From a virus (lineage: Duplodnaviria > Caudoviricetes), in IMG/VR virus record IMGVR_UViG_3300050821_003608, positions 466 to 64,465 of that record: DNA of 64,000 bases, one strand, 5' to 3'. Both the position numbers and the translations under genes were made by a program. The notes under the pieces were generated by a model that saw only the letters and a program-made list of their open reading frames with translations, was not told where the DNA came from and ran no database searches. This document shows, one piece after another, positions 13,192 to 42,361 of this stretch (positions are counted from its first letter, which is position 1; every line of letters begins with the position of its first letter).

Positions 13192-13271
13192 CTTGGGTTG
13201 TCCATCCACACAGGACGGAGACTTCAGGATGCCGTTACGGTTGATAGTAGGCTACACGCTCAAACAGCTTG

Positions 13272-13475
13272 TCAAGGGGAAACTTCAAGTTTTTGCTGTT
13301 CGATGATTCTGACGTTCCTGACGCCCCCTAGATTGCAGTCGAGGATGACCTGTCCCGAGAGGCGTTCTTCGAGGATTAGCTGCATCACGCGCGCAAAGTC
13401 GGACGGCAGGAAGGTACGCTCGCGCACGACAGTTGTGCCTTCGCGGGAGACCAAGATGTCCGACGTTGCGCTCAC
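13272..13475 (-). CDS. Hypothetical protein
   Basis: 67 aa, overlaps the portal stop. Confidence 0.55.
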   Translation of the reverse strand: MSATSDILVSREGTTVVRERTFLPSDFARVMQLILEERLSGQVILDCNLGGVRNVRIIEQQKLEVSP

Positions 13476-15861: not shown

Positions 15862-16314
15862 TTAGGTTTTCACATTGATGCGGTCAGGATGAAACTCTTC
15901 TGAATCGACAGGCCGGGAGCCGGAGTCGTTCTCCCGCGCCCAGAGGTAGGCGGTGCGCTCCAGCCAGCGTTGCTGGTAGACGGCTCGCTTGTCGTTGCGA
16001 AGCTGGAGGTAGAGCCGGATGAACTCGCGCTCGAACTCGGAGGTCGCCGAAGAGGTCATGCGCGCGTAGAGTCGGTCGCGCACCTCGTCCATTCGCGCCC
16101 CGAACGTCGCTGCATCGCGTTGGACTTCGCGTTCCCACTCGCGCTTCTCTTGCGCGACGAGAGTAGCCTGGAGTCGGTCCACGGCGGCGAGAGTGTCGGC
16201 GTACTCGCGGATAGCGCCCTCGGGGGTAGGGAAGTCCGAGTACGGGGCGAGAGTTAAATGGTCGTCCGGGTGGCGGAAGTAGATGACGGGTTCGATGCAG
16301 CCGGGCTTTCTCAT
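15862..16314 (-). CDS. Hypothetical protein
   Basis: 150 aa, ATGA overlap with the terminase stop. Confidence 0.65.
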   Translation of the reverse strand: MRKPGCIEPVIYFRHPDDHLTLAPYSDFPTPEGAIREYADTLAAVDRLQATLVAQEKREWEREVQRDAATFGARMDEVRDRLYARMTSSATSEFEREFIRLYLQLRNDKRAVYQQRWLERTAYLWARENDSGSRPVDSEEFHPDRINVKT

Positions 16315-23983: not shown

Positions 23984-24476
23984 AGTCGTGTGCTTCCCTC
24001 CACGCCCCAACCCTATCCTACTAGCGGAATGCTTGTCAAGGGAAATCTACACAGTGTTCGTAATGGTAGGTAAGTACATGAAAATAAAAATGATAAAAAT
24101 AGCCCTCGTAGTGTGGAAACACGGACCCGTTTCCCCTCTTCCCTATCCCGGACAACTCGGGCGACCGGGACTATGACAAGGCCGGCGTCGATCGGGACTG
24201 CCACGTCCAGGCGGCCGGCGAGGTCACAATGTTACGCGTCGAGGTAACGTGTGGGGAGTCGCGTCCCGTCCCACGTGGTAGGCGTCGACAGAGGCGGAGA
24301 CAAGGACAACGGACTAGACATGGCCATAGACGTGCTAGGCGCGCTGGGCAGGACATTAAATGGACACCATTCTCATCTCCCTCCCATAATACCGTATTAC
24401 GGTAATACCGTCATACCGTCATACGCTACAGAATACCATATCCTCAAACTATTTTGCCTTGCGTGTCGGATTTTAC

Positions 24477-24505
24477 TTGACAAGTGTTTGAGACTTTGCT
24501 AGAGT
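24477..24505 (+). promoter_or_regulatory. Sigma70-type early promoter
   Basis: TTGACA-17 nt-TAGAGT with extended -10 TG, upstream of the first rightward gene. Confidence 0.7.
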
Positions 24506-24535
24506 TTGAGTGTGGGACGGGAGACCACACTCGCC

Positions 24536-24976
24536 ATGCCCTACGTAGCAATGCAACGCCTCGCAGTTCAGGGAGTTTACGCGCTATTTGAGCAAGCTAT
24601 CGCGCACAAGCTCCAGTATCCCAAGATTAGACTCCAAACCGTCACGCAGACACCCGTTGTGCTGTCACGCGCTGGGAAGATGTCCAAGTACACTGGACAG
24701 ATTATGGTGACGGATGGCGGACCATTCGGCGCTAACCGTTATTTCGGACGCATTGACCTTGACGGAGTGTTCCACGCGACGGACTCCGCTGACGTGCCAG
24801 TGTTTCACTTGTTGCAACGCCTGAGCGAAAACCCGGCGGATGTTGCCAGCGAGTATGGCAAGCTGACGGGTAATTGCTGTTTCTGCCAGCTTGGATTGAA
24901 GGACGCAAGGTCAACGGCGGTTGGATACGGTCCAGTGTGCGCGGACCATTTCGGATTGCCTTGGGGAACACACTGA
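24536..24976 (+). CDS. DUF6011-like zinc-finger protein
   Basis: CCFCQLGLKDARSTAVGYGPVCA. Confidence 0.75.
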   Translation: MPYVAMQRLAVQGVYALFEQAIAHKLQYPKIRLQTVTQTPVVLSRAGKMSKYTGQIMVTDGGPFGANRYFGRIDLDGVFHATDSADVPVFHLLQRLSENPADVASEYGKLTGNCCFCQLGLKDARSTAVGYGPVCADHFGLPWGTH

Positions 24977-25048
24977 CATGACCAAACTCCAATTGCAACG
25001 AATCGCGCGGGAACGCGCCAAGTCAATCCGCGCGGCACGGTTAGGCCA

Positions 25049-25261
25049 ATGAAACTCAACGTCACCATTGGTGGAAGCCATCGCAAGTTTAACCGTCAGA
25101 TGGACGCGCTACAGCCATTCGCGGATGGACTGCCACTGCGCACGCGCTTGTACGGCAAGTTGTTCACCTTGACCATTACCGATTCGCCGGAAGCGCGGGA
25201 GACTATGAAGCGCGTTGGCGCTACGGTGTCGCGTTGGCAACCGGATTGGCTCAACGAGTAG
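25049..25261 (+). CDS. Hypothetical early protein
   Basis: ORF in the early cluster. Confidence 0.5.
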   Translation: MKLNVTIGGSHRKFNRQMDALQPFADGLPLRTRLYGKLFTLTITDSPEARETMKRVGATVSRWQPDWLNE

Positions 25262-25331
25262 CATGGCTCCAGTCTCGCGTCTCCCCTGGGGGACGCGGGG
25301 AAGTGGCCAGCACAGTGAGAGGGAGGACAAT

Positions 25332-25652
25332 ATGAACGCGTACATCTATCAAGCTGACATTTATTGCGTGGATTGTGGCGAGGCAATCAAGCGAAGGGTG
25401 GAGCGCGACACGCCCGCGAATGTACCAGCGAATCCCAACGATGAACGGACGTTCGACTCTGACGATTATCCCAAGGGACCGTACACGGACGGTGGAGGGG
25501 AAGCGGATTGTCCTCAACATTGCGGTATGTGCCGTGTTCACCTTGAGAATCCGCTAACACGCGACGGCGAACAGTACGTATTACGGGCAATCAATTCGGA
25601 ATGTTGCACCATTCCAGAATGGCGGGAGTATTACTCGTATTTGTTCGCCTAG
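25332..25652 (+). CDS. Early protein with two CxxC motifs
   Basis: GGAGG RBS; YCVDCG and HCGMC. Confidence 0.7.
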   Translation: MNAYIYQADIYCVDCGEAIKRRVERDTPANVPANPNDERTFDSDDYPKGPYTDGGGEADCPQHCGMCRVHLENPLTRDGEQYVLRAINSECCTIPEWREYYSYLFA

Positions 25653-25721
25653 CCACAGTCTCAAGCCCATTCAAACGCGCGTGGGCTTGGGGAAGTGACT
25701 AGGTTAGGGGAGGGTGACACC

Positions 25722-25982
25722 ATGAACTATATTGTGGGCAGTAACGCGGATCGTTTCTTCACGGAGTACCGCAAGCAATTGGAAAATGCCTTGCGTGATT
25801 ATCCTCAAGAGTACGCGTTTCCGGCCAGTGAATTGCCGAACGTGTTCGAGCGGATGCGCGTCGCGATCGAGAATGGCAGTGCGAACAAGGACAGCCGCGC
25901 GATCAAGGCGACATGCAAGATGTTGGGGATTAAGCACACCTACACGGCGATTCGCGAATACCTCGCGACGGTGCCAGCATGA
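25722..25982 (+). CDS. Hypothetical early protein
   Basis: GGAGG RBS; AIKATCKMLGIKHTY. Confidence 0.7.
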   Translation: MNYIVGSNADRFFTEYRKQLENALRDYPQEYAFPASELPNVFERMRVAIENGSANKDSRAIKATCKMLGIKHTYTAIREYLATVPA

Positions 25983-26182
25983 CCGCGCGTGGGGAGATCG
26001 TAACGCTCGGCGCAACGTCGCACGGTCCCGCGTGGGACGCCAACACGTTCCGGGTGGTCGTACTTGAAGACAGGCCGGACGCGCTGATTGCCGTGAGTGA
26101 ACGTAGGTACTTCGAGACTCACGGCGAAGCGGTCAAAACTCCGGGGATATTCCCCAAGTTTGCGTGGGAGGTCCGCCAATGA
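25979..26182 (+). CDS. Hypothetical early protein
   Basis: ATGA-coupled. Confidence 0.55.
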   Translation: MTARGEIVTLGATSHGPAWDANTFRVVVLEDRPDALIAVSERRYFETHGEAVKTPGIFPKFAWEVRQ

Positions 26183-26397
26183 CCCGCACCGTCACCATAC
26201 CCGCTATCAATCGCACCGTCAGTCTCGCGGCCTACGTCAAGGCGATCAAGCTGGCACTGGCGAATCCCGACATGGAGTTTACTCACGGGCTCACTACCTG
26301 GTGGCCGACCAAGGGGAGTGAGATTGTCGAGCAGTTCCGCGACGGCATGCACGACCGGATTAGTCAAGGGGTGCCGTACAGTCAACGAGGGTTGTAG
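26179..26397 (+). CDS. Hypothetical early protein
   Basis: GGAGG RBS, ATGA-coupled. Confidence 0.65.
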   Translation: MTRTVTIPAINRTVSLAAYVKAIKLALANPDMEFTHGLTTWWPTKGSEIVEQFRDGMHDRISQGVPYSQRGL

Positions 26398-26461
26398 TCG
26401 TAGTGGGAGGGACCGTACCACGCAACGGGGAATGCGCGCGCGCCAATGGAAAGGAATACAA

Positions 26462-27148
26462 ATGGGAACGGTATCAGATGAACAACGATTCCGAGACATC
26501 CTCGCTGTACTAGCTGTGGACTCTGAGAAGTTTTGGGCCAATGGCAAGGTCATGCAAGCCGAATATGAAGCCGAATTGGCTGCTGACTATCACACGCGAT
26601 TCCCACGACGTAAGTACGTGGCTTCTAAGTTTGACGAATGCCCAAACGGAGCAACGATAACGGCGAAGTGGAAAGCCGAAGTAGACAAGGTGTGTGCTGC
26701 CCACGACGATACAAAGAAAGAACGGAAAGCCGAATTGGATAAGATAGCTGAGGCATTGGAAGTTTGGATTACACCCGAACTGAACCTAGTCCACACAGTT
26801 CATGCTTCAACGTACGCTTCCCAAGGATTCGGGTGTGAGAAGTACACACGACAACGCGCTGAGAGTTACGCTGACACAGCACGATTCAACAATCTTACCG
26901 CCGAGGTCCGGCCTGTAGGTGAACGATGTTCCGGTTCCTATGGTATGTCGTTTCAGGATTACGGGGTTTTTGTCAACACCGATTCAGTAGGCTGGGAGTT
27001 GGTGCAGCGCAAACCAAGCCAAACTATAAAGGAATGGCTAAAGTCTTGTTGGAAGCGTGGAGTCAATCCGCGAGTCTACAATCCATTCCTACCATACGGC
27101 CTAGAGGAAAAGATGGGGCTGGATTATTTCGGAGGCGAGGCGGTGTAG
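26462..27148 (+). CDS. Hypothetical early protein
   Basis: AAGGA RBS before MGTVSDEQ; lower GC. Confidence 0.65.
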   Translation: MGTVSDEQRFRDILAVLAVDSEKFWANGKVMQAEYEAELAADYHTRFPRRKYVASKFDECPNGATITAKWKAEVDKVCAAHDDTKKERKAELDKIAEALEVWITPELNLVHTVHASTYASQGFGCEKYTRQRAESYADTARFNNLTAEVRPVGERCSGSYGMSFQDYGVFVNTDSVGWELVQRKPSQTIKEWLKSCWKRGVNPRVYNPFLPYGLEEKMGLDYFGGEAV

Positions 27149-27214
27149 GGAGCGTAACCCCGCACGCGGAAGCGGGGACAGTCCGGGCAGGACTATAAAC
27201 ACGGAGGCAAGGGT

Positions 27215-27538
27215 ATGGCAGTCACATCGAAAGAGAAAATGGAGTTCGCCTACGCAATGGCGAGGCACAGCACGGTCACACAGCACGAGTGCTTGCGATT
27301 GCTCAGGCTAGCCGCGACGGTACAACGGCTGGCCACGGAAGCGTGCAACCGAGAATTGACCGAGCGCGAGGTGCGGAAGGACGAGAAGGTCCAGATGGAC
27401 ATTATCGCTATTCTCGCGCCGCACGATTGCGAGGCCAAGTTCCAGGGCGATCCGCGAGGGTGCTGCGTCAAGGTCAAGGTTCCAGACGGCTACACAAACG
27501 ACTGGGGACGGGAGGGGATATGCGTGCCGACAAGCTAA
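27215..27538 (+). CDS. Conserved phage early protein (GDPRG motif)
   Basis: GGAGG RBS; ACN...QGDPRGCCVKV. Confidence 0.7.
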   Translation: MAVTSKEKMEFAYAMARHSTVTQHECLRLLRLAATVQRLATEACNRELTEREVRKDEKVQMDIIAILAPHDCEAKFQGDPRGCCVKVKVPDGYTNDWGREGICVPTS

Positions 27539-27650
27539 CGGAGGTGAACATGCACGAGGCCAGCAGCACAAAGCCTCGTTGACCATCAGGACACGTCCCC
27601 TCGATTGTTCTCCCAAGTATGAGGGGACGTGGCCGGAGGATCAAAGGGAC

Positions 27651-28127
27651 ATGCTGACACACTCTCAACAGGTCGCCGTGAACGCGGCGAAGTTTCTGGT
27701 CAAGGTCGCAGTCACGGCTATTGTGCTGTGGATTGTGATGGTGCTGTTTCTCAGTCTCCCGGCGAGGGGGCAGGAACTACCAAAGGCGCCCGTCGCCAAG
27801 GTCAAGGTCGGGATCGTCGAAAAAGTGGAACTGTTCACCTTGGCCGGGAGCGCAGCCGCCGACTATGGAAGCACCGAGGGGATGCTCGGCCGGGGCTGGA
27901 AGGAATTGAACCCGGCGTTCGGGCCGCATCCGAGCCACGCGAGGCTCTGGGGGGTGGGCGCGGCGATTACGAGCGCGCAGGGTGGGGTGCTGCACTACAC
28001 GGAACAGTCGAGGCATGCGTGGGTGCGGTGGCTGGGACGCGCGGGCTGGCTCTACGTCACGGAGGAGCATGTCCGGTTCACGATTCACAATCGAGGGCTA
28101 GGCAGGCCGAGGGGGAGGGTGCAATGA
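27651..28127 (+). CDS. Membrane/exported protein (AD..ST...ELNP motif)
   Basis: TM helix, then ADYGSTE..GWKELNPAFG. Confidence 0.6.
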   Translation: MLTHSQQVAVNAAKFLVKVAVTAIVLWIVMVLFLSLPARGQELPKAPVAKVKVGIVEKVELFTLAGSAAADYGSTEGMLGRGWKELNPAFGPHPSHARLWGVGAAITSAQGGVLHYTEQSRHAWVRWLGRAGWLYVTEEHVRFTIHNRGLGRPRGRVQ

Positions 28128-28249
28128 CACTCGCGGAAGCCTATTGGACAGGCATGATAGTCGGGGGGTGTGTGATGGCCACGCTCGGGTGGTTGGGGTG
28201 GTGGCTTGGGCAGCGACCGTGGCGACAGCCACAGAGGAGGGGATTATGA
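28124..28249 (+). CDS. Small membrane protein
   Basis: MTLAEAYWTGMIVGG...; ATGA-coupled on both sides. Confidence 0.5.
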   Translation: MTLAEAYWTGMIVGGCVMATLGWLGWWLGQRPWRQPQRRGL

Positions 28250-28743
28250 CGCGCGGGGAGGAGCTAGTTCAGGCGCAGGACTATGCGAAGTGGATGGTGC
28301 TGCGCATCGTCCGGGACGAGGAGGACGCCAGGGACGTGCTGCAAACGGCCACGGTCAAGGCACTGGTAGCCTTGCGCGAGGGGAGATTCCGCGGGGACTG
28401 CTCGCTCAAGACGTGGTTCTCGACGATCGCGCAGAACGAGGCCAAGATGGTGCTCAGGGGCAGGCTGGGTGCGAAGGGGACTAGACAGTTTTTGTCATTC
28501 GACGAGGGGGACGGGGCCGAGGTGGAGCAGCTTCGGTCTGAGGAAGTGTCGCCGCTGGAGCGGGTGGTGCAGGGCGAGGTGGTGGCGAGGGTGAGGCACG
28601 CGATAGCGAGGCTCTCCCCGCTGATGAGGGAGGAAGCCGGGAGATGGCTGGCCGGCGACAAGGTAGGCGCAGATGGAAGGCGGAAGGCCAGGCGGCATCA
28701 CGCCAGGGTCAGGCTGAGGGAACTATTGAGTGTGGTCCAATGA
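28246..28743 (+). CDS. ECF-type RNA polymerase sigma factor
   Basis: Region 2 DEEDARDVLQ...FRGDCSLKTWFSTIAQN; AIARLSP; region 4 degenerate. Confidence 0.8.
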   Translation: MTRGEELVQAQDYAKWMVLRIVRDEEDARDVLQTATVKALVALREGRFRGDCSLKTWFSTIAQNEAKMVLRGRLGAKGTRQFLSFDEGDGAEVEQLRSEEVSPLERVVQGEVVARVRHAIARLSPLMREEAGRWLAGDKVGADGRRKARRHHARVRLRELLSVVQ

Positions 28744-28955
28744 GGACGCGAGGGACGAGGCTCTATGTGGAAGGGAAGCACGCACGGGATGCGTGGTGGA
28801 CGAGGGTGTACTGGGTGCCCGTGTTCAGCATGAAGGCGGCCGAGAGGTGGATACCAGTGGCCGATGGGATGACCGTCCCAGGGGAGAGGACGAGGGAAGG
28901 TCTAGGGAGACTACTTCGCATCCGCACGATATGCCAGATGGAGCGGGTCCAGTGA
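28740..28955 (+). CDS. Hypothetical protein
   Basis: ATGA-coupled to the sigma gene. Confidence 0.5.
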   Translation: MRTRGTRLYVEGKHARDAWWTRVYWVPVFSMKAAERWIPVADGMTVPGERTREGLGRLLRIRTICQMERVQ

Positions 28956-29016
28956 CACGTCGGGCTTGGTGGTTCGTGGCGTTGGTGATTTTGGCTGTTT
29001 TGGAGTTGCTCTAAGG

Positions 29017-29865
29017 TCAACTAGGGGGCGACGGAACCGGTGGGACGGTCGAAATCCACACAAACTCACTCTCAGGTGTCTGTGGTCCGTGCGATTTAGT
29101 GTGCCGGAAGCACCCAGGAACCTTGCACAAGGGCTCAGGGGGAGGATCTTGGGTACTACCAACGGAAAAGTTATCCGGTAAGGTGTCTTTCTCTATACCG
29201 GATAACTTTATGTCCTTACGTCCTTGTTGTGAGAGTCCTTGGAAGAACAACACACGTTTGGATAGTTCCAATTCGGCCCGGAGAGAGTAGTTGGTAGGGA
29301 GGTCGGGAGCTAGGACGAGCCGGAGACGCTCGAAGAAGTCCACCTTGGGGTGGGATGAGACTTGGAGGGAGTAGTCGTGGGAGCGGAGCAGTTCGATGGT
29401 CGGAGTCGGGATGGAGTGGATCGAGGCGAGCAGGAGGACCTTGTGGACGAGCCGGCCACCCTCGGGACAGCCCAGCTTGGACAGGATGGGTCCGAGCGGC
29501 GCCAAGAGGGAGCGGATTAGCTTGCCGTCTCCTTCAAAGCGCAGGATCGTGAAGTTCTCCGGGCAGATGAGGTGAAGCTTGCGGTACTTTTCATACTCGG
29601 CCGTGGCGAGGAGCTGGGAACAGTGGATGCACCCGCGGCGCTTACAAGCGGAGATGTTCTGTTTGTACCTGCCTTTGGGGGTGTCGTGCGTCCGCCAGAT
29701 GGTCGAGCAGTTGTCGAGCTTGGCGGCGATCTTGAGGTGGCGCTCGCAGCCAGGGTCGAGGTCGTAGATAAACTGAGCGTAAGACTTGGTGAAGGTGGGG
29801 ACTTGGACGACGTTGCAGAGTTCGTGGAGTTGGGCCAACGTGGGAACGAACTGGTGTGTGGACAT
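29017..29865 (-). CDS. Zinc-binding Rep/IS91-like (HUH-related) protein, putative replication initiator
   Basis: AGGAGAGG RBS; KLDNC...ACKRRGCIHCS, FTILRF, GRLVHKVLLL. It is the only reversed gene in the region. Confidence 0.5.
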   Translation of the reverse strand: MSTHQFVPTLAQLHELCNVVQVPTFTKSYAQFIYDLDPGCERHLKIAAKLDNCSTIWRTHDTPKGRYKQNISACKRRGCIHCSQLLATAEYEKYRKLHLICPENFTILRFEGDGKLIRSLLAPLGPILSKLGCPEGGRLVHKVLLLASIHSIPTPTIELLRSHDYSLQVSSHPKVDFFERLRLVLAPDLPTNYSLRAELELSKRVLFFQGLSQQGRKDIKLSGIEKDTLPDNFSVGSTQDPPPEPLCKVPGCFRHTKSHGPQTPESEFVWISTVPPVPSPPS

Positions 29866-30138
29866 AGGTAGTAGTCCTCTCCTGTGGACACAAGATAGGA
29901 GAGGGGCCGGGGTGTCCACTCCCCGGCCCTTCTGAGAGGTCGAATCGCTCCCGAAGGAGTGCCCGCCCAGCCTCGGGTGGAGATTCGCATAGGTGGGCTG
30001 GTGGCTGTCAAGTAAAAAGTGAGGCTTAGTGAAAAATAATTTAGAGGCTCATCCTACGTAAATACTAGTCATAATTAGACTTGCAGGCGGAGTGCTCGGG
30101 AGATGCTGGCGGGAGGACGCAAGTAACAAAAATAATGC

Positions 30139-30167
30139 TTGACAAGCATTCGGACTTTTGCTAAAAA
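30139..30167 (+). promoter_or_regulatory. Sigma70-type promoter of the replication operon
   Basis: TTGACA-17 nt-TAAAAA with TG extension and A-rich upstream element. Confidence 0.55.
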
Positions 30168-30197
30168 CGAGCCGTTGGCTCGCAATGGAGGTGGACA

Positions 30198-31721
30198 GTG
30201 GAGTGGAGCGCATACCAGAGCGACATTTTCAGGTGGATCGAGGAGAGTCGGGACAGCCTCATCATCGAAGCCGTCGCCGGCTCAGGCAAGACCACGACCA
30301 TCGTCGAGGCCATCAAGCACGTCCCTCCCGAGCAGTCGGTCGTGTTCCTTGCGTTCAACAAGAGCATCGCCGAGGAGCTGAAGCGTAGGGTGACTCAGCC
30401 TAACGCTAAGTGTATGACTTTGCACAGCTTAGGGTTGAGCGCGTGGAAGCAGGCGCTCACTTGGGACGCCCAAGGACTGAACATCGACGGCAAGAAGATC
30501 AGGAACATCATCGACGAGATGGAACTGGAATGGGGGAAGTGGACCAAGGAGATGACCAAGTTGGTCGGGCTCGCCAAGGGCGGAGGGATAGTCCCGAAGG
30601 GATTGGAGGTCAAGTATTCCGGGCTAGTCGAGGACTCCGAGGACGTGTGGGAGGATCTGATGGAGCTGTACGACATCGACCCCGACCAAGTGGACCTTGG
30701 GCTTGTCAGGGAAGTGCTCACGCGCTCGATCGAGCAAGCGCGGGAGGTGATTGATTTTGATGACATGTTGTACATGCCGGTCATCGCGGGGGCGGAGTTT
30801 CAGAAGGCCGACGTGGTGTTTCTGGACGAGGCGCAGGACGTGAACGGGATTCAGGCCGAGATTGTGTCGAGGATGCTCCTACCGGAGTCGCGCGTAGTGG
30901 CCGTGGGCGATCCCAACCAAGCCATCTACGGCTTCCGCGGCGCACTGTCGGACTCCATGCACCAGATTGGAAGGAGATTCCACTGCACGTCCCTCCCGCT
31001 GAGTGTGAGCTATCGCTGCCCGAAGTCGGTGGTGGCGAAGGCGAGGGAGTGGGTCAGCCACATCCTGCCGCATGAGGATTCGATCGAGGGCATCGTGGAG
31101 GACGCGGGGGACTGGCGAGTGGGGGACTTCCGGCCGGGGGACGCCATCCTCTGTAGGAACGCTCGACCGGTGGTCGCCATTGCGTTCCTCCTGATAAGGA
31201 ACAAGGTCGCCGCGAGAGTGGTCGGAAGGGACATCGGACAAGGCTTGGTCAGCCTCATCAATAAGATGAAGGCCTCGACGATCCTCGACCTCGACGAACG
31301 ACTCAGCAAGTATCGGAAGCGCGAAGTCGAGCGCGCGAAGGGGAAGGAAGCCAAGATTGGCGCTCTGGACGACAAGCTCGACACCATCAGAGTGTTCATG
31401 GACGAGGCCGGGCCGCACGCGGGCATCGGGACGCTCATCCAAAGTATCGAGGGCTTGTTCGGCGACGGCGCGGACATGCGCGGCATGGTCACCTGCTCGA
31501 CGGTGCACAAAGCGAAAGGGATGGAGTGGGATCGGGTGTTCGTGCTGGACGCAGACACGCTGATGCCGTCGAGGTGGGCGCGGCAAGCGTGGGAGATGCA
31601 GCAGGAGGACAATCTCTGTTACGTCGCCGCGACGAGGGCCAAGAAGGAGTTACGGTACGTGTCGTCCGAGGGGCTAGGGATAGAGAGGAGGGAGCGTGCC
31701 GCATCGACCGAGAATGCCTAG
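30198..31721 (+). CDS. UvrD/Rep-like SF1A helicase
   Basis: AVAGSGKTT, LAFN, LDEAQD, VGDPNQAIYGFRGA, STVHKAKGMEWD, YVAATRAK. Confidence 0.93.
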   Translation: MEWSAYQSDIFRWIEESRDSLIIEAVAGSGKTTTIVEAIKHVPPEQSVVFLAFNKSIAEELKRRVTQPNAKCMTLHSLGLSAWKQALTWDAQGLNIDGKKIRNIIDEMELEWGKWTKEMTKLVGLAKGGGIVPKGLEVKYSGLVEDSEDVWEDLMELYDIDPDQVDLGLVREVLTRSIEQAREVIDFDDMLYMPVIAGAEFQKADVVFLDEAQDVNGIQAEIVSRMLLPESRVVAVGDPNQAIYGFRGALSDSMHQIGRRFHCTSLPLSVSYRCPKSVVAKAREWVSHILPHEDSIEGIVEDAGDWRVGDFRPGDAILCRNARPVVAIAFLLIRNKVAARVVGRDIGQGLVSLINKMKASTILDLDERLSKYRKREVERAKGKEAKIGALDDKLDTIRVFMDEAGPHAGIGTLIQSIEGLFGDGADMRGMVTCSTVHKAKGMEWDRVFVLDADTLMPSRWARQAWEMQQEDNLCYVAATRAKKELRYVSSEGLGIERRERAASTENA

Positions 31722-32079
31722 GCCACGGTGGCAGGGGAGCCGGCCGCTCAAGCTCATCACCGTGAGGATCGTGCCGAAGGAGGGCGAGGGGGTGGAGGAG
31801 AAACTCCCATTCCACGCGCCCGATGGGAGGTACTGGGCTGAGGAGAGCGTCGAGGAAGTCCTCGACCGGGTGATTGACTATCTCGATGGGAAGTATCCAG
31901 CTTGGGAGTTTCGGTTGGTGGCACTGAAGGGCGGAGGGCAGTTCAATTTTGTGTATGATGGGCCGCGGGCGCCCAGTGCGCTGGCGGAAGTCATGGCGAA
32001 GAGGGAAGGGAAGGTGGACAGTGAGAGCGAAGGTGATTCGAGTGGAGTCGGGGGAATCGTTCACGGACAAGGAACGTAG
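31696..32079 (+). CDS. Hypothetical protein
   Basis: GAGGAG RBS. Confidence 0.6.
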   Translation: MPHRPRMPRPRWQGSRPLKLITVRIVPKEGEGVEEKLPFHAPDGRYWAEESVEEVLDRVIDYLDGKYPAWEFRLVALKGGGQFNFVYDGPRAPSALAEVMAKREGKVDSESEGDSSGVGGIVHGQGT

Positions 32080-32224
32080 GTACACGTTCCAGTTTGCGAC
32101 AGCCGAGAGGTTCGGGCAGAACACGGTGACATTCTGCGAGAGCGCACTGCCGTCCGAGTTGCGCGGGTTGGAACTCGACTATGAGGTGGACGTGGTGATG
32201 GTTCCGGTGGGGGTCAGGACATGA
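32021..32224 (+). CDS. Small OB-fold-like hypothetical protein
   Basis: GTG start; beta-rich; coupled to the next gene. Confidence 0.5.
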   Translation: MRAKVIRVESGESFTDKERRYTFQFATAERFGQNTVTFCESALPSELRGLELDYEVDVVMVPVGVRT

Positions 32225-33768
32225 CGCAGAGAGTGTTCACCGATAGATCGCGCATCGAAACCCACCAGCGATGCCCGAGGCTAAGATGGCTGGAGTATCA
32301 CTCCGGCGAGGCGAGGATGGGCGTCGTCAGCGCGAGGAAGCCACTCCCTCTCGCGGTGGGAGGCTCGGTCCACGCTGGGCTGGCCGTCCTGCTCCAATGC
32401 ACGATGGGCATCCCCCTCGGCGAGCTGTCGTTTGAGTTAGCCGAGTTGAAGGCAGTCCGAGCGGCGCTCGCGGACTTCTCTACCTTCGCCAACGCGCTCG
32501 ACATCGACACCTCCGAGCAGGCCGCGTTCTTGGCCACGACCACGGACCCTTCGTTGAAGGAGATGCACGAGGGGATAGTGAGGCGAGCGAAGTCGGACTT
32601 TGACCTCTATCTGTACACGGAGCAGGCGGCGTTGGTCGAGGGGATGGTTCGCGCGTATGCGAGGCGGCGCCTGCGGCCACTGTTGGAGCAGTATGAGGTG
32701 CTGGAGGTGGAGCGGGAGGGGCAGTGGGAACTGCACGAAAGCGAACAGGATTTCAGTTACCCTGGTGGTCGTCGTCCCGCCGTGTGGTTCATGTCCCGCC
32801 CCGACGCGCTCCTGCTCGAACGGGACTCGCGCCAGCTCTACATCCTGAGCTTCAAGACCGCCGGCGGGTGGGACATCCGCAAGGCGAGGGACGCCGAGCA
32901 TGACATGCAGGGGCTCGGTGAGGGCGTGGAGGTCGAGAAGCGGCTCGCTCGACACTGGGAGGTCATCCAGCAAGTCAAGAAGCGACTCCCGGAGGGACAG
33001 GACGTTCTGGAAGTGGCGGTCGGGAAGGAAGTCCTCTCGGGAGCAATGCTCGACTTCCTGAAGCGGTCCCCGGCGCCGCCGCGTATCCTCGGCATCCGAT
33101 ACGAGTACATGTTGAAGGGTGATCGGTGGGTAGACAAGGACTTGAGCGCGAAGCTGGGCGTCGAGGTCCGCTCCCAGCGCAGTCCGCTCGTCCGCGGCTA
33201 TCTCAATCAGGGAATGACCTCGGGGGACGAGCAGTGGAATGTGTCTTGGGACTACGTGAAGGAGGACGGCACCTCGTCGAAGCTGTACTGGAAGAACTGG
33301 AAGTCCTCGCCCGTGTGGGAGCATCAGACCATGAGGGAATGGATTGACAAGCTCGACGCAACGGTGATGACCGTCGGGGAAGAGAATCACGAGCTAGGAT
33401 TCTCCTGCCCAGCGCAATCGACCGGGTTCCTAGCGACGCATCCTCTCGATGACATCTTCATCCCTCCGATCGTGGTGTACCGGAACGACGACGACCTACG
33501 GGACTGGGTGGAGCAGATCGAGGCGCAGGAACGTAGGGTGGCTGAGGGGGTCCAAGCTGTACGGGCCGCGGGCAGTGCGGACGAGGAGCGGTCCATGCTG
33601 AACGTACACTTCCCGATGACGAGACGAGCCTGTGAATATCCAACTACTTGTTCCATGTCGAGATTATGCTATGGAGGAGAGGACATCCGGCGGGATCCGC
33701 TCGGGTCGGGGCTGTACTCGATTCGCAAGGCCAATCATCCGCAGGAGGTGGCTAGTGATAAGTCTTAG
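32221..33768 (+). CDS. PD-(D/E)XK nuclease, Cas4/AddB-like
   Basis: SRIETHQRCPR, GGSVH, SRPDALL, ILSFKT, C-terminal C-x5-C-x5-C. Confidence 0.8.
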   Translation: MTQRVFTDRSRIETHQRCPRLRWLEYHSGEARMGVVSARKPLPLAVGGSVHAGLAVLLQCTMGIPLGELSFELAELKAVRAALADFSTFANALDIDTSEQAAFLATTTDPSLKEMHEGIVRRAKSDFDLYLYTEQAALVEGMVRAYARRRLRPLLEQYEVLEVEREGQWELHESEQDFSYPGGRRPAVWFMSRPDALLLERDSRQLYILSFKTAGGWDIRKARDAEHDMQGLGEGVEVEKRLARHWEVIQQVKKRLPEGQDVLEVAVGKEVLSGAMLDFLKRSPAPPRILGIRYEYMLKGDRWVDKDLSAKLGVEVRSQRSPLVRGYLNQGMTSGDEQWNVSWDYVKEDGTSSKLYWKNWKSSPVWEHQTMREWIDKLDATVMTVGEENHELGFSCPAQSTGFLATHPLDDIFIPPIVVYRNDDDLRDWVEQIEAQERRVAEGVQAVRAAGSADEERSMLNVHFPMTRRACEYPTTCSMSRLCYGGEDIRRDPLGSGLYSIRKANHPQEVASDKS

Positions 33769-34271: not shown

Positions 34272-34448
34272 ATGAAAAAGCGCAAATGCGCCGAATGCAA
34301 ACGTGTCTTCAAGCCGGTTCGCGAGTATCAACTGTACTGCTCGCGGCGGTGCAAGAACCGCGCCGGATCACGTAGGCTGCGGGAACGGGCCAAGAATTAC
34401 GTGGAGATGGTGGCGGAGCACGGAGGGGTGATGGGAGGGAATGACTGA
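34272..34448 (+). CDS. Small zinc-finger protein (CGNR-like, 58 aa)
   Basis: Manual translation MKKRKCAECKRVF...YCSRRCKNRA; TGATG overlap with the next gene. Confidence 0.7.
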   Translation: MKKRKCAECKRVFKPVREYQLYCSRRCKNRAGSRRLRERAKNYVEMVAEHGGVMGGND

Positions 34449-35491
34449 TGGCACGCTCAGGCTGTATCTACTGTCCAACTGGAGCACGCAAGACCTCGCA
34501 GGTGAAGGATTTCGCGCACTACATTGCGAGGAAGACCGGGAAGGCCACGCTCCTGTTATCGACCGACGGCGGGGGATGGGATCCCTGCACTCCCGAGGTC
34601 AACGCGGGGATGATAAAGCCGTATCGCTGCGAAGTGGCCAATATGCCGCTCGTGCTCTTACGAAAAATCAGCCAAGGGTATTGGCCGGTCAATCCCTTGG
34701 AAACCAATCCCGAGCGCATCGACCTCGAACCTATGAACTACGACGAGATTGGAGGCATCGCCGTCGAGGGCTGGTCGTCCATCTCGCAGGTGGTGATGCG
34801 CTACCTGCCCGACCAAGGGATTAGCGTCGGCGGCGAAGACCGCAAGAAGGCCAACTCGAACATGTCCTTCGTCCAGTCCGTGCAGGTGATGGGCCAGTGG
34901 CGGCCCGAGAGCTTCGGGAGCAACACCCGCGGGGACTATGGCTTCGTACAGAATTATCTCTACGGACTAGTGATGAACCTGAACTCACTGCCAGTCGAGT
35001 ACGTTCTCTATACCGCGCTGGAGTCGAAGACCGAGGACGACGACCGCTCGACGACGTTCGGCCCGGCGATCGCGGGGAAGAAGGGAACGCGGGACTGTGG
35101 CGCGTGGGTCGGGGACCTCATTCACGGGCAGGATTACCCTATCGCCAAGAAGATTCAGATGCCTGACCCGGCGGACGCGACCAAGACGATTGAGCTGGAC
35201 CAGATCGACGTGACGGTGCGCTTCCACTTCAGGAAGCATCTCGACCCAGCGACGGGGATTCCATTCCCGGCCAAGCCCAGAGTGACGCCCGAGAAGACCG
35301 AGGCGCTGGAGAAGAGGTTCCCAGGGGGATACTTCGAGCCGTATGTGAAGGATGAGGTCGTGTACGAGGGGTTCGGCACGTACCTCGACGTGGTGGATTC
35401 GCTGGGAGCGATGCAAGCGGATACGCTCAAGGATTGGCGCACGAGGATGGACGCCAAGCTCGGGAGAGTTTCAGCAGGTCAGGGGAAGTAG
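34448..35491 (+). CDS. Sak4/AAA_24-like ATPase (single-strand annealing)
   Basis: N-terminal degenerate P-loop YCPTGARKTS, IAVEG, DYG..Q, GPAIAGKK; lies between a nuclease and an SSB-like gene. Confidence 0.7.
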   Translation: MARSGCIYCPTGARKTSQVKDFAHYIARKTGKATLLLSTDGGGWDPCTPEVNAGMIKPYRCEVANMPLVLLRKISQGYWPVNPLETNPERIDLEPMNYDEIGGIAVEGWSSISQVVMRYLPDQGISVGGEDRKKANSNMSFVQSVQVMGQWRPESFGSNTRGDYGFVQNYLYGLVMNLNSLPVEYVLYTALESKTEDDDRSTTFGPAIAGKKGTRDCGAWVGDLIHGQDYPIAKKIQMPDPADATKTIELDQIDVTVRFHFRKHLDPATGIPFPAKPRVTPEKTEALEKRFPGGYFEPYVKDEVVYEGFGTYLDVVDSLGAMQADTLKDWRTRMDAKLGRVSAGQGK

Positions 35492-35522: not shown

Positions 35523-36353
35523 ATGGCAACACCATCGAAACCATGGGAAGTCAGTCAGGGCAGTCAGGGCGGTGCTCCGTCGCAGCCAGGACAGCCAGGG
35601 GAGGCTCCGGTCAACGGCGCCGCACCAGTCTCGTCCGACGTACAGGATGTCATCGACCCGAACGACCCTCGCCTGGTATCAGAAGCCGTGGACGTGAACG
35701 TCGAAGGCGACGCTTACGCGCAGCCCAGTCCGCCGCCGGACGGGAAGTACCGTATCAAACTGAAGCTGGAGGGGATCGAGAAGGCCGACAAGTCGCATCT
35801 CGACTATGAACACACCGCGACGAAGAAGGCGCCCGTGATGCCGTACTTTCACACGCGCATCTCGGCCACCATCATCGACCCGACTGGAAAGTACGACGGC
35901 ATCAAGGTCTACCCGGAGTTCGGCGGCTACGTCGGCACGCTCCAGAACAAGGACCGCTCGACCAAGGTCGCGACGATCCTCGCGCGGCTGAAGCGGCCGG
36001 ACGGCCAGCCATGGGTCAACTCGACGATGAAGATGGACCAGAAGGGCTGGATGGACCTCTTCGTGAAAGCTCTGGCGGGCGAGCCGGAAATCGGCGGCGA
36101 GCTGCAATGGCAAGCGAGCTGCGAACAGTGCGGCAAGGAAGCCAAGGCCGCCAGGGAGCAGGGAAAGGACGCTGCGTACCCCGCGAACGTGAATGGGATG
36201 CATCGGTTCCCGCAGGAGCAGTCGGCAGACAAGCGGAAGTCGGCCGGCCACGGATACTCGTCCGAGGTGAAGTGTCAGAAGGACGCCTCACACGGGTACT
36301 CCAGAGCGCAGGCCCGCATCGTGCGGTTCCTGCACACGCATGAGTTGAAGTAA
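35523..36353 (+). CDS. Putative single-stranded DNA-binding protein
   Basis: PPPDGKYRIKL motif typical of Sak4-associated SSBs; CxxC insert. Confidence 0.55.
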   Translation: MATPSKPWEVSQGSQGGAPSQPGQPGEAPVNGAAPVSSDVQDVIDPNDPRLVSEAVDVNVEGDAYAQPSPPPDGKYRIKLKLEGIEKADKSHLDYEHTATKKAPVMPYFHTRISATIIDPTGKYDGIKVYPEFGGYVGTLQNKDRSTKVATILARLKRPDGQPWVNSTMKMDQKGWMDLFVKALAGEPEIGGELQWQASCEQCGKEAKAAREQGKDAAYPANVNGMHRFPQEQSADKRKSAGHGYSSEVKCQKDASHGYSRAQARIVRFLHTHELK

Positions 36354-36569: not shown

Positions 36570-36842
36570 ATGGCAGCACGAGGTTCGGCATTGCAACGCG
36601 CGCTCACGTATTTTCGTGAGGCGCAGATCGACGAAGCAAGGGTCGCGTACCAGCTGGCCGAGGAGATTATGACCAAGCGGCTGGATGATGCGGAGAAGGA
36701 CTTCGCTCCATTCAAAGCGAAGGCATCGACACCGAGAAAGCAGCGGAAGACACGGACGCCCAAGACAGGCGCAACCACCGACCACCAGGACGTTCAGGCT
36801 CCTCCAGCACAGGAGCACCGGGAGTCCCTGGCCGACGCATGA
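36570..36842 (+). CDS. Small basic protein
   Basis: AAGGAG RBS. Confidence 0.65.
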   Translation: MAARGSALQRALTYFREAQIDEARVAYQLAEEIMTKRLDDAEKDFAPFKAKASTPRKQRKTRTPKTGATTDHQDVQAPPAQEHRESLADA

Positions 36843-38179
36843 ACGAAGAGGTCCAACTCGGCCAAGTCGACTCCGAGATCCAGCTCGTCGGGGAGGAACT
36901 CCCAGTTCCATGTGAGTTCCTCACCGGCAAAGCTGGGAGCGGCAAGACGTATGAGGTGCTCCGCCGCGTGGGGGCGGACCCATCCTACGGGCTGGTCTGC
37001 GCGACCACGGGCATCGCGGCCGTGAACCTAGGCGCCGTGACCATCAACTCGGTGCTCAAGTATTTCGACACTGCGTCGATGCGAGACTCCTACCTCGCCG
37101 GCCACCTCACCCGCGTCCTGCACAAGATCGCCAAGGAGAAGCGTCGCATCATCATCGACGAGGGGTCCATGCTTGAAGCGGAACAGCTTGGCTACCTCTA
37201 TCGTGCGACACAGGAGGCCAATCGCTTCGCCGACGTGAAAGTGCCCCTCGGTATCGTAGTGGTCGGGGACTTCGCCCAGCTCCCTCCGGTGAAGGGCGCC
37301 TGGGCGTTCACCTCCCCGTACTGGGCGGAGTTCGCATCGAACACCACGAGACTCGACAAGGTATGGCGGCAGGGAGAGGGACAGTTCCTCGACGCACTGA
37401 ACTTCGCTCGTGTCGGGGACGGACTGTCCTGCGCCAAGACATTATCTGAGGCCGGGGCGGGATGGAACTCCTCTCGCGACATGGACTTTGAAGGCACGAC
37501 CATCTTGTGCAAGAACGACATGGTGTCGCGGCACAACGACGTGGTGCTCGACCGCGTTCCTGGACCACGCTTCAAAGTAACCTCCGAGCGATGGGGCAAG
37601 CAACGCTCGGAGTGGGGCGAGAATAAACGTACCCACGAGTGGGGCATCCCTCCGTCGTCGGAGTTCAAGCTGGGCGCGTATGTGATGGTGCTGTCCAACA
37701 CGCGCGACTTCAGCATGGTCAACGGGGATTGCGGCTGGGTCCGATCCTACGATCCCGACCTGGAAGTGTTCACGGTCGAACTCATCCGCACCAAGAAGGA
37801 AGTCGTGGTTGGTAGGATCGTGCGTGAGGTCGCCGCGACGGACGAGCCCGAGGGATGGGTGGGAGACGAGTTGGACCGCGACGACGAGGCTGGGTGGCTG
37901 CCACGGCAGCACTATAGACCAAAGGACAAGAAGTACGTGCTGGGGCAGATTCGATATTTCCCGCTGAGGCTGGCCTACGCGTCGACGGTGCACAAGTCGC
38001 AAGGACTCACGCTCGACCGCGTGCAGGTGGACTACCGCGACCGATTCTTCGAGAGTGCGGCCATGGTATACGTCGCGCTCTCGCGGTGCCGGACACTCGA
38101 AGGGTTGCGACTGGTCGGTGGGCCGGACGTGCTGGCGCAAAAGTGTAGGGCGGATGTGAGGGTGATGGCATGGCTCTAG
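36839..38179 (+). CDS. PIF1/RecD-like SF1B helicase
   Basis: TGKAGSGKT, ATTGIAA, IIDEGSM, GDFAQLPPV, LAYASTVHKSQGLTLD, YVALSR. Confidence 0.93.
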   Translation: MNEEVQLGQVDSEIQLVGEELPVPCEFLTGKAGSGKTYEVLRRVGADPSYGLVCATTGIAAVNLGAVTINSVLKYFDTASMRDSYLAGHLTRVLHKIAKEKRRIIIDEGSMLEAEQLGYLYRATQEANRFADVKVPLGIVVVGDFAQLPPVKGAWAFTSPYWAEFASNTTRLDKVWRQGEGQFLDALNFARVGDGLSCAKTLSEAGAGWNSSRDMDFEGTTILCKNDMVSRHNDVVLDRVPGPRFKVTSERWGKQRSEWGENKRTHEWGIPPSSEFKLGAYVMVLSNTRDFSMVNGDCGWVRSYDPDLEVFTVELIRTKKEVVVGRIVREVAATDEPEGWVGDELDRDDEAGWLPRQHYRPKDKKYVLGQIRYFPLRLAYASTVHKSQGLTLDRVQVDYRDRFFESAAMVYVALSRCRTLEGLRLVGGPDVLAQKCRADVRVMAWL

Positions 38180-38868: not shown

Positions 38869-38907
38869 CTCCGAGGTGCAAACCGAATAGTTGTGTTGGA
38901 GCCTTTC

Positions 38908-39312
38908 ATGCCTAGAAAGGGAACGAATCCGTATCGTTCCTCGACTTTTAGACGAAGCTGTCACAGAAAGTCTAGAAGGTTGTATGAGAGAACGTACAAT
39001 ATAAAACTCCCTTACTGGGTTGATGTTCATCATAAGAACGGCGACTACGCTGACATCAGAATAGAAAACCTCGTTGCTCTGGATGAGGCTACTCACAACC
39101 GAGTTCACTTCACCAAGCACTCCGAGCCTATACGATGGAAGCGCCCTGAGCACAAGAAGTATCAAAGAGAATATAAAAAGAGGATTCGGGTTGTGAGGAT
39201 TTGCGCTAGGTGTGGTGCGTCTTTTACGTGCGACAAGTATCACAAGGGTCTATGTTGCTCAGTTGGATGCTATCTGAGAGGAATGTCTCGTGGCAGCTCG
39301 TTCAAAGCCTAA
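38908..39312 (+). CDS. HNH homing endonuclease
   Basis: DVHHKNGDYADIRIENL...HNRVH plus C-terminal CxxC..C; lower GC. Confidence 0.8.
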   Translation: MPRKGTNPYRSSTFRRSCHRKSRRLYERTYNIKLPYWVDVHHKNGDYADIRIENLVALDEATHNRVHFTKHSEPIRWKRPEHKKYQREYKKRIRVVRICARCGASFTCDKYHKGLCCSVGCYLRGMSRGSSFKA

Positions 39313-42300: not shown

Positions 42301-42361
42301 CACGTCTCAAAGCGCGGATCTGGCAACTGCGCGAATGGGAACCGATAGGGGAACGCTGTGA
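39290..42361 (+). CDS. Family A DNA polymerase with N-terminal family-4 uracil-DNA glycosylase-like domain (SPO1-type architecture)
   Basis: UDG motifs GEASG..E..GLPF, TNVVRCRP, HPSF; exonuclease DIET, GHN..YD, Y...D; LSSRNPNIQNFP; motif C VHDS. Confidence 0.92.
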   Translation: MAARSKPNSCIGCVCHDMGTDFSAIEGTGSSGIMLVGEASGEHEQRDGLPFRPHAPAGGVLERTLRRMGLDRQQFSITNVVRCRPRKNWLEGSPWEFSAINHCRPNLDAAIAERRPRVIVALGGTALRELTGMAGEAQGISHLAGYVLPLAIPTMIPCSEPAELDGKHHPNCFICGGSGFIGGRGAGTIPVIGDFHPSFLRHGKMALGGVFARILQRATNIAKGLDREWLWGVDPRDHSTWGKKQYVIHPSVDDARALRNRVYDNQNIPVAEDIETPESASMDEDARDGYKDTEIRQIQFSMGKGEGMAFPWEEPFRSIASEIMHSPNPKYGHNWDNYDHKVLRAAAAREGWSYAPTVRVLDTLDLFHHWQPDLPAHLQFACNFISFPFPWKHLHTLENEPFYGCVDVDSDWQLGEMLIRTLKRDDMYGFAQSSIGYIGQVYEVRPVLAAMEDRGMPIDDAARLALDVEFEIAQRELGTELAKLAPRQCGRLQPKEGYKGVPPEMKPWINTPQLQEEMDRPRLDDREYYHYAIYDFPVAIRGANDELAIEKVDRWVRVYDFNPNSRPQIINYMKAKGHPVPKSKEEDSEGNAKETTAAKELMRLAAKTGDDFYLKCNQYKGYTKMRGTYVAGFIPGEDGCVHTTFTFDTGIGQLSSRNPNIQNFPKLKPTPAIAKSMRKMVAAKPGHVLTEWDFKSCHVITLGFLAEDLNYMRLGRLDIHSFVAGHFLGHWDGLKIFGETDEELLARFKWLKSDEVRRTVRDDQAKHGILGIGNGLKAKGLYERYMESFPPTPCQVCAGTGKVAGVRGPKKCASCQGIGKVPGQRVAERVLEVCESLFPNVFAYQKREVKQAHEQQFLKTDFGHIRRFYEVFRWDHRRGDWGPGDQHEEAVAFRLANIAFGHIREKLKQLHYSGLAERWGLFNNVHDSFLFNFPESQLEEHVAEVYPVLVEPSKVLRHPTICPDGLVIGVEGAWGRTWADMQEIKVGVSAASSSHEPEVSRDAHTSQSADLATARMGTDRGTL

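Follow-up and report, generated by a model that had tools for sequence, protein, structure and literature searches.

Rep proteins of the HUH class are the classic starters of rolling-circle replication, and nuclease-dead descendants of such proteins serve as origin binders or persist as captured genes in eukaryotic double-stranded DNA (dsDNA) viruses. A tailed phage is able to use an HUH nickase, as phage P2 does with its Phage_GPA-type protein A, and an origin-binding protein of the lambda O type together with host helicase and primase can also suffice for a phage. As described in PMC5714925, HUH endonucleases have a motif I, a motif II with two metal-binding His residues, and a motif III Tyr (YxxK/H) located on a helix; plasmid Reps have the motif order I-II-III, HUH enzymes with reversed order exist, and Rep_1 is the family formed by rolling-circle initiators of the pC194/pUB110 type, which are HUH endonucleases. 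Two further sources describe inactivated Reps under purifying selection in large dsDNA viruses, namely avipoxvirus apvRep and human herpesvirus 6 (HHV-6) U94 (PMC10193959), and treat "inactivated derivatives" of HUH endonucleases as a recognised category (PMC13595969). The subject of the present analysis is a gene on the minus strand at positions 29017-29865 of a 64,000-nucleotide stretch (hereafter the window, bases 466-64465 of the 64,465-bp record IMGVR_UViG_3300050821_003608 of an uncultured tailed phage). Its product, here called the Rep-like protein, is read as a divergent, catalytically inactivated descendant of Rep_1 that is presumably kept as a DNA-binding protein for origin recognition or regulation, a reading to which we assign a probability of roughly 0.6.

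The family of the Rep-like protein was defined by a phmmer search of 1.84 billion representative proteins, which yielded 17 matches at E<=1e-3. Fourteen full-length sequences of 275-324 amino acids (aa), the query and 13 relatives, were aligned, and P0013, P0016 and P0017 were left out as short piecemeal matches of deviating length (P0013 with only 56 residues matched). The Rep_1 profile used for comparison consists of full-length pC194 Rep and 12 annotated plasmid "protein rep" coding sequences of 25-63% identity, drawn from plasmid records because the 120 listed matches of pC194 Rep are all near-identical copies. Alignment of the 14-member family profile to this 13-protein Rep_1 profile with hhalign gives a probability of 86.9%, a P value of 4.1e-6 and a score of 50.4, compared with 13.5 for the reversed template and 9.1-15.7 for 20 of 20 column-shuffled templates. 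The default alignment covers residues 46-126, comprising the zinc ribbon, motif I and the first helix, and a greedier setting extends it to residues 25-241; along this extension, the strand at the HUH position, the helix at the Tyr position and the KR..G motif follow in the same order as the secondary structure of the predicted model. The features of the gene and its product are:

29017..29865, minus strand: Rep-like gene, 282 aa from ATG, from the list of open reading frames (ORFs), guanine-cytosine (GC) content by codon position, 13 phmmer relatives and hhalign to Rep_1.
29620..29709, minus strand: Cys4 zinc ribbon, residues 53-82 (C53, C74, C79, C82; Cys in 14/14), aligned to C37/C60/C65/C68 of pC194 Rep, C...CKNRFCPVC.
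29584..29586, minus strand: invariant Tyr94 (14/14), on a helix between zinc ribbon and motif I, off the motif III position and with no conserved counterpart in the Rep_1 profile.
29536..29553, minus strand: motif I strand FTILRF, residues 105-110, family consensus FTYLE, on Rep_1 FLTLT in the high-confidence part of the hhalign alignment; model strand E104-110.
29428..29451, minus strand: strand at the former HUH position, LVHKVLLL, residues 139-146, with V140 and K142 in the His columns, from the extended hhalign alignment; model strand E140-145.
29314..29346, minus strand: helix at the former motif III, residues 174-184, KVDFFERLRLV, with no catalytic Tyr, from the extended hhalign alignment; F177 and L181 invariant; model helix H174-184.
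29236..29259, minus strand: KRVLFFQG, residues 203-210, in common with the Rep_1 motif G(K/R)R.i.ygG, from the low-confidence hhalign extension; R204 and G210 invariant, F208 in 13/14.
29101..29127, minus strand: C-terminal Cys/His knuckle CKVPGCFRH, residues 247-255, followed by a TP.E..W...PP tail; C252 in 14/14, C247 in 8/14 (CPxC in the rest), H255 in 9/14.

Thirteen columns are invariant in the alignment of 14 (M1, C53, C74, C79, C82, Y94, F177, L181, P190, R204, G210, R216 and C252), and conserved basic columns at R49, R118, K130, K142, R161, K203, R204, R216 and K220 make DNA binding plausible. The likeness to Rep_1 proteins of pC194 and pUB110 resides in the Cys4 ribbon of the form C-x(20-22)-C-x4-C-x2-C with a basic C(K)xRxC (the first spacing is x22 in pC194 Rep and x20 in the phage protein, and those that follow, x4 and x2, are the same), in the motif I strand, in the order of strands and helices, and in the C-terminal (K/R)R...[F/Y].G motif. 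The phage family differs from Rep_1 in lacking both motif II His residues and the motif III Tyr in all 14 members, in the added C-terminal Cys/His knuckle and Pro-rich tail, of which the knuckle has no counterpart in the Rep_1 alignment (model confidence is ∼91-93 at residues 250-270 on the predicted local distance difference test, pLDDT), and in being encoded by a 64-kb tailed-phage genome, where Rep_1 proteins are encoded by small plasmids. An earlier note, made from this DNA by inspection, had quoted L50..C53, C74-KRRG-C79-IH-C82, FTILRF (105-110) and LVHKVLL (139-145); all of these are present, and the full conservation of the four Cys, with their placement on the Rep_1 ribbon and that of FTILRF on FLTLT, puts them beyond chance. 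The same note had called the protein IS91-like. IS91-family transposases (PF14319 plus PF04986) likewise have a zinc ribbon preceding an HUH-type domain, and Zn_Tnp_IS91 (PF14319) matches two of the 14 members weakly (best E 0.0073, below significance for assignment to that family); Y2_Tnp (PF04986) matches none of the 14 at E<=10 and the family has no conserved Tyr pair, so that the label applies at most to the zinc ribbon. Ends of a transposable element were not seen either, although no search aimed at them was made.

The residues needed for canonical catalysis are missing throughout the phage family. All 13 sequences of the Rep_1 set have both HxH and KY. At the first HUH His column none of the 14 phage proteins has His, the position being occupied by V, T, A, E, I or L, and at the second His column the count is again 0/14, with K/R in 13. 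The middle "U" column holds His in this protein alone (1/14), and it is this residue that is seen in LVHKVLL; the earlier designation of this segment as a degenerate HUH-like motif is therefore right as to position, and the His within it is not conserved. At motif III, hhalign sets E179 and R182 on the Glu and Lys of the Rep_1 "E.aKY" and leaves a gap opposite the Tyr. The catalytic Tyr that the note had proposed to look for was not found, as no Tyr column in residues 165-205 exceeds 4/14 and four of the 14 members have no Tyr there at all. The only common His columns are H60 (12/14, in the zinc ribbon) and H255 (9/14, in the C-terminal knuckle); no conserved His pair exists anywhere in the family, and the catalytic loss therefore stands even if the extended alignment shifts by a few columns. 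The absence of both HUH His residues and of the motif III Tyr excludes canonical nicking on sequence grounds. Nick-primed rolling-circle replication by the Rep-like protein, which the earlier note had offered as its first explanation, is thus unlikely, and its second, a catalytically dead Rep, is upheld by the profile-profile homology to Rep_1, the predicted fold and the lost catalytic residues; origin binding, the role the note adds to it, would be reasonable for such a protein.

The sole conserved Tyr of the family, Y94 on the helix preceding motif I, leads to the alternative that the protein is an active but non-canonical nickase, in which Tyr94 would be the nucleophile and other residues such as His60 would be metal ligands, with the UvrD-type helicase unwinding the nick and PolA extending the 3'-OH, and this would explain the missing primase. 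The complete conservation of Tyr94 and the near-complete conservation of His60 are in keeping with this alternative, as is the location of Tyr94 N-terminal to the sheet, which resembles relaxases (Tyr before HUH); HUH enzymes of reversed motif order are described in PMC5714925. Nevertheless, the family has no conserved acidic or His cluster that could hold a metal, H60 and H255 both lie outside the sheet, and V/T/A and K/R occupy the strand on which every Rep_1 protein bears its HUH. Furthermore, the homologues at L001 and L002, the loci of the two nearest relatives, have no Tyr aligned to Tyr94 and are missing some or all of the Cys residues. We consider such a nickase very improbable.

The fold predicted by AlphaFold2 from the 14-row alignment has a pLDDT of 84.4 and a predicted template modelling score (pTM) of 0.73; a single-sequence AlphaFold model is unusable (pLDDT 32.9). 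The model is HUH-like, with an antiparallel sheet that contains the motif I and motif II strands and is packed by helices. A Foldseek search of the model against predicted viral structures in BFVD gives 24 matches at E<=1e-3 with template modelling (TM) scores of 0.23-0.46, and of the five that are named, four are annotated "Microvirus replication initiator protein" and the fifth is an uncharacterized protein of Halorubrum pleomorphic virus 1. Against the PDB, Foldseek returns nothing at E<=1e-3, and the family profile has no match among PDB sequences at E<=10. The best structural neighbour is SIRV1 ORF119 (PDB 2x3g), which has 11% identity, lacks the zinc ribbon, and is presumably an active Rep-type nuclease. 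The structure search of the ESM Atlas reaches TM ∼0.6 to clusters with Rep_1, Zn_Tnp_IS91 or Y2_Tnp, which is a lead only given the Atlas model pLDDT of 0.49; the list holds a Y2_Tnp/Zn_Tnp_IS91 cluster at TM 0.59, and PF14319 and Rep_1 co-occur in Atlas clusters. The earlier note had considered that the fold might not be of the HUH type, and by both the model and the structure searches it came out HUH-like.

The ORF at 29017-29865 is a real gene, as established by its codon statistics, its own Shine-Dalgarno (SD) sequence and its 13 credible relatives. Its GC content at codon positions 1/2/3 (0.57/0.43/0.73) falls inside the span covered by 22 long ORFs of this genome that were taken as genes. 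A longer form starting at GTG (29017-29919, 300 aa) is also open; ATG is preferred as the start because AGGAGAGG precedes it by 10 nt, because the N-termini of the relatives are all M-[S/C/L/P]-T-like, and because the GTG extension crosses a strong GC hairpin. The leader contains the following:

29876..29933, minus strand: 5' leader of the Rep-like gene, with the SD sequence AGGAGAGG at 29876-29883, the complementary CCUCUCCU at 29897-904 and a GC-rich hairpin at 29900-29933; inverted repeats I1 and I7.

Pairing of CCUCUCCU with AGGAGAGG hints at translational control of the Rep-like gene. The z score of the RNA fold over the whole leader is only -1.3, and in L001 the corresponding place in the leader is taken by another complementary pair, CUCCUUCU/AGAAGGAG.

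The genome from which the window was taken is complete. The record ends in an exact 97-bp direct terminal repeat, is classed in IMG/VR as "direct terminal repeats" and has a CheckV completeness of 100%, so that only 465 bases lie outside the window, within a long ORF running off its start. Public runs that hold the stretch are soil metagenomes only, with no RNA run among those listed; three soil-metagenome DNA runs carry pieces of it as short contigs, in which there are no differences, joints or ends. The Rep-like gene is the lone minus-strand gene in a 22-kb plus-strand block that spans 24.5 to 46.5 kb and that contains these features:

28144-28743, plus strand: ECF-type sigma-like protein, from family scans.
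30198-31721, plus strand: UvrD-type superfamily 1A (SF1A) helicase, PF00580 E 1.4e-24, phrog_1967 E 2.5e-104, first gene of the replication/recombination block and divergent from the Rep-like gene.
32221-33768, plus strand: PD-(D/E)XK-like protein, 515 aa, grouped in the ESM Atlas with phage PD-(D/E)XK nucleases (feature score 0.98, TM 0.67), a lead.
34448-35491, plus strand: Sak4-like ATPase, a weak match (E 2.5e-6).
36839-38179, plus strand: PIF1/Dda-type superfamily 1B (SF1B) helicase, from family scans.
38893-39312, plus strand: HNH endonuclease, from family scans.
39290-42361, plus strand: UDG-PolA fusion, from family scans.
42446-43459, plus strand: 337-aa phrog_6247 protein (E 1.3e-69), named "DNA topoisomerase" there, with a faint Pfam match to JetD_C (Toprim-like) at E 0.16.
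Within 24.5-46.5 kb, plus strand: DUF1643 protein, from family scans.

The 515-aa protein at 32221-33768 was missed by Pfam and PHROGs; together with the UvrD-type helicase (30198-33768) it would make an AddAB/RecB-like helicase-nuclease pair. The replication module as first described thus stands with respect to its SF1A and SF1B helicases, PolA, nuclease and a weak Sak4-like ATPase; as for the proposed SSB-like protein, the ORF in question (35523-36353, 276 aa) has no family match and the SSB label is not confirmed.

No primase or DnaB-type helicase occurs among the 59 ORFs scanned with Pfam or PHROGs, and a six-frame search of the whole record with PF01807 (Zn_ribbon_DnaG), PF09250 (Prim-Pol) and PF03796 (DnaB_C) gives nothing at E<=1, control genomes being positive. 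The earlier statement that there is no recognisable DnaG or archaeo-eukaryotic (AEP) primase and no superfamily 4 (SF4) helicase therefore holds for the complete genome by hidden Markov model (HMM) searches, those in six frames having covered the missing 465 bases as well. Many virion-side ORFs have no annotation of any kind, so that "no primase" means none detectable by HMM. A genome with no detectable primase, and a Rep-like gene divergent from an SF1A helicase, are both arrangements that a non-canonical nickase would suit. The plus strand has a positive GC skew over 1-44 kb (about 0.07-0.29 in most 2-kb windows) and a skew near zero over 44-64 kb, and the positive part spans minus-strand virion genes and plus-strand early genes alike. 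Because the skew tracks strand and not coding direction, it is a hint of an asymmetric replication or single-strand exposure mode; asymmetric replication of the kind a nickase would start could produce it.

The spacer of 332 bp between the Rep-like gene and the UvrD gene was examined for promoters, operators and candidate nick sites, with the following features:

30003..30012, minus strand: promoter-like -35 element CTTGACAGCC for the Rep-like gene, proposed from its motif, with TGTCAAG invariant in three aligned intergenic regions.
30015..30135, no strand assigned: AT-rich stretch that separates the divergent promoters (GC 0.455 in 30000-30199); its position alone makes it a candidate site of unwinding or binding, and its conservation in L001 and L002 is poor.
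30138..30182, plus strand: promoter-like CTTGACAAG (30138-30146) and -10-like TAAAAA of the replication operon, followed by the leader palindrome, conserved in L001 and L002.
13268-13276, 24032-24040, 24476-24484 and 30138-30146: copies of CTTGNCAAG in the window, only the last of them in this spacer, all between ORFs and oriented with the downstream genes.

A simple sigma-70 consensus scan called no promoter. The 9-bp palindromic CTTGNCAAG occurs four times in the window compared with 0.75 expected, a count reached by none of 100 shuffles, and is probably the -35 box of a phage promoter read by the host sigma-70 or by the phage ECF-like sigma factor (28144-28743). A 17-bp palindrome, AATGCTTGaCAAGCATT (30134-30150), was considered as a Rep or nick site and rejected, as its core CTTGNCAAG recurs four times between ORFs and is conserved as a -35-like box at L001 and L002. 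CTTGATA, the nick consensus of the pC194 type, was likewise discarded: its two copies in the window compare with 3.0 expected and neither lies near the gene, which counts against the nickase proposal as well. In the leader of the UvrD operon a palindrome CGAGCC-GTT-GGCTCG (30168-30182) is identical in L002, and in L001 (∼5967-5981) both arms are changed, to CGACTC-GGT-GAGTCG; compensatory change would have preserved it as an RNA hairpin or as an operator. Rfam finds no family in the window.

Related genomes were collected from IMG/VR with the UvrD-like protein, which gave 22 loci and hence 23 records counting this genome. A homologue of the Rep-like protein is present in three of the 23, namely this genome and its nearest relatives L001 and L002, and in both of the latter it lies divergently upstream of UvrD. 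Co-occurrence with UvrD, which the earlier note had proposed to test, is seen in the closest relatives and not in the other records. The Rep-like protein is 25% identical to the L001 homologue over 216 residues and is by far the fastest-evolving product of the locus; in L001/L002, UvrD is 71/67% identical, the nuclease 60/59%, the Sak4-like protein 82/80% and the next ORF 56/49%. Such fast divergence (25% vs 71% for UvrD in the nearest relative) fits a specificity determinant. The family is rare, since the ten clusters looked up have 1-3 members each and are mostly singletons; three are encoded on contigs whose lengths (61.6, 63.2 and 26.0 kb) are compatible with phages of this type. A word-indexed homologue search returned only the Rep-like protein itself and, with the alignment as query, P0015 as well, and tblastn found no match in cultured phages. 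Literature searches, which covered open-access papers and preprints only, brought up no account of a Rep_1 relative lacking HUH in any tailed phage.

In more distant relatives, divergent ORFs upstream of UvrD were considered as hidden homologues and rejected, none of them matching (best E 0.09). At L008 (3623-5580, minus strand; UvrD 42% identical) two other ORFs occupy the divergent position; read by eye only, they would be an SbcC-like ATPase (P-loop GPTNTGKS, C-terminal CPLC, the ORF with the best E of 0.09) and, from phosphoesterase-like motifs, an SbcD-like phosphoesterase, and they are not Rep-like. A 734-aa Prim-Pol ORF is present in G004, a complete 64.2-kb genome whose UvrD is 41% identical (contig 1, 39005-39493, locus L036, E 2e-15), and neither this genome nor any of the other 21 related records has Prim-Pol. 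Since G004 has Prim-Pol and the other complete relatives have neither Prim-Pol nor the dead Rep, there is no clean either/or between the two.

Fast divergence, loss of "invariant" residues and patchy distribution together fit either a role directed against the host or a competitor, or partial decay. Under the first of these, the Rep-like protein would be an early protein acting as a decoy that titrates a host SF1 helicase (PcrA/UvrD/Rep), as a blocker of Rep_1-type plasmids or satellites, or as an anti-defence factor. That it evolves faster than all five neighbours compared in L001 and L002 (25% vs 49-82%), that it borders an early region unconserved in relatives, that it is alone on the minus strand within 22 kb of plus-strand genes, and that only 3 of 23 related records have it are all compatible with this role, and PMC10193959 discusses an inhibitory or regulatory role of captured Reps. 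However, the basic residues and zinc ribbon fit nucleic-acid binding at least as well, and a link to the replication operon is suggested by the position beside it and the divergent promoters, which are constant across three phages. We regard a host- or competitor-directed role as unlikely. The early region itself, 24506-29014, which includes a DUF6011 protein (24506-24976) and the ECF sigma-like gene, is almost unconserved in L001/L002 within 6 kb of UvrD, the sole match being a 37-residue stretch of 27579-28127.

Decay in the stricter sense would make the gene a relic, now without function, of a plasmid or IS91-like element that the phage had captured. The loss of the catalytic motifs, the very fast divergence with further "invariant" residues lost in L001 and L002, and the small, rare family of mostly singleton clusters are what a remnant would be expected to display. 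Yet the ORFs are intact at 275-324 aa in 14 clusters with <50% mutual identity, 13 columns including the start Met are invariant, the model is confident and compact, the codon statistics are gene-like, and promoter-like and SD elements are kept in three phages. We consider this explanation highly improbable and the least favoured of those weighed here.

Several results weigh against the view of the gene as an inactivated Rep_1 descendant kept for DNA binding. The Rep-like protein has no match in Pfam, PHROG or NCBIfam (0 families at E<=10 or E<=1), and the Pfam model of Rep_1, PF01446, matches none of the 14 family members and, in six-frame searches at E<=1, none of the 23 records, in which canonical Rep_1 is thus absent. 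The placement of motifs II and III depends on the low-confidence hhalign extension (residues 25-241), and the structure model was built on only 14 sequences. No iterons, binding site or conserved operator specific to the Rep-like protein were found beside the gene, and the two palindromic or promoter motifs in its vicinity can be accounted for by promoters or by hairpins in leaders. The L001 homologue lacks all four Cys, R204 and G210, and that of L002 lacks the fourth Cys, so that the "invariant" residues are not universally needed, which is awkward for a single conserved biochemical role. Finally, the presence of the gene in only 3 of 23 records indicates that it is not a general requirement of such a replication module.

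In the preferred reading, that of a dead Rep_1 descendant, the protein has retained the Cys4 ribbon, the motif I strand, the HUH beta-alpha core and the C-terminal (K/R)R...F.G motif, and has lost the motif II metal-binding His residues (now V/T/A and K/R) and the motif III nucleophilic Tyr. Specific DNA binding is the most economical function in view of what remains of a Rep once catalysis is removed, and position and divergent promoters link the gene to the replication operon. The protein would accordingly be expected to act as a zinc-dependent, sequence-specific DNA binder, made early from its own promoter and from a leader that may be able to hide the ribosome-binding site. It might mark the origin and help to load the phage SF1 helicases, with priming by transcripts, recombination intermediates or host primase, or it might instead regulate the divergent replication operon. 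A prediction of the complex of the UvrD-like helicase with the Rep-like protein gave no verdict (score 0.00 in two runs made with no controls) and speaks neither for nor against an interaction.

A more specific form of the preferred reading holds that the dead Rep_1 descendant is the origin-recognition protein of a replication system with neither primase nor hexameric helicase in soil phages of ∼64 kb, where it would bind near the divergent promoter or AT-rich region and load the SF1A and SF1B helicases, with synthesis by PolA beginning at a transcript or at an intermediate of recombination. This version is tentative and, taken with all of its parts, rather doubtful. A second candidate origin is at 24010-24506, where leftward virion genes and rightward early genes diverge; it contains an AT-rich block (∼24060-24100) and an iteron-like array of the 8-bp TAATACCG repeated 4.8 times at 24387-24424, 5 kb from the Rep-like gene. 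Elsewhere in the window, the ORF of the large terminase (16311-19250) encodes 979 aa, and the terminase match starts at about residue 330, leaving an unexplained N-terminal extension of ∼330 aa.

By analogy, the Rep-like protein may work like an origin binder of the lambda O type. It has no sequence relation to lambda O in any search, and the iteron-in-gene arrangement of lambda O is absent from the Rep-like gene; P2 protein A is similarly unrelated in sequence in all searches, and its catalytic residues are absent in the Rep-like protein. ApvRep, HHV-6 U94 and the origin-binding domains of polyomavirus large T and papillomavirus E1 derive from Reps of eukaryotic single-stranded DNA viruses and usually carry a helicase domain. 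The phage protein is unlike them in belonging to the plasmid Rep_1 lineage, in having no helicase domain, in keeping the zinc ribbon and in its occurrence in a tailed phage.

If the Rep-like protein is only a regulator or a decoy, the result is a modest gain in annotation for a rare family. A tailed phage with a dead copy derived from Rep_1 would provide an example, among bacterial viruses, of the path seen in eukaryotic dsDNA viruses, and origin recognition by such a protein, if true, would parallel the conversion of an HUH nuclease domain to an origin-binding domain in polyoma- and papillomaviruses. The gene would then be a concrete candidate for the choice of the start site in primase-less phages that have two SF1 helicases and PolA.

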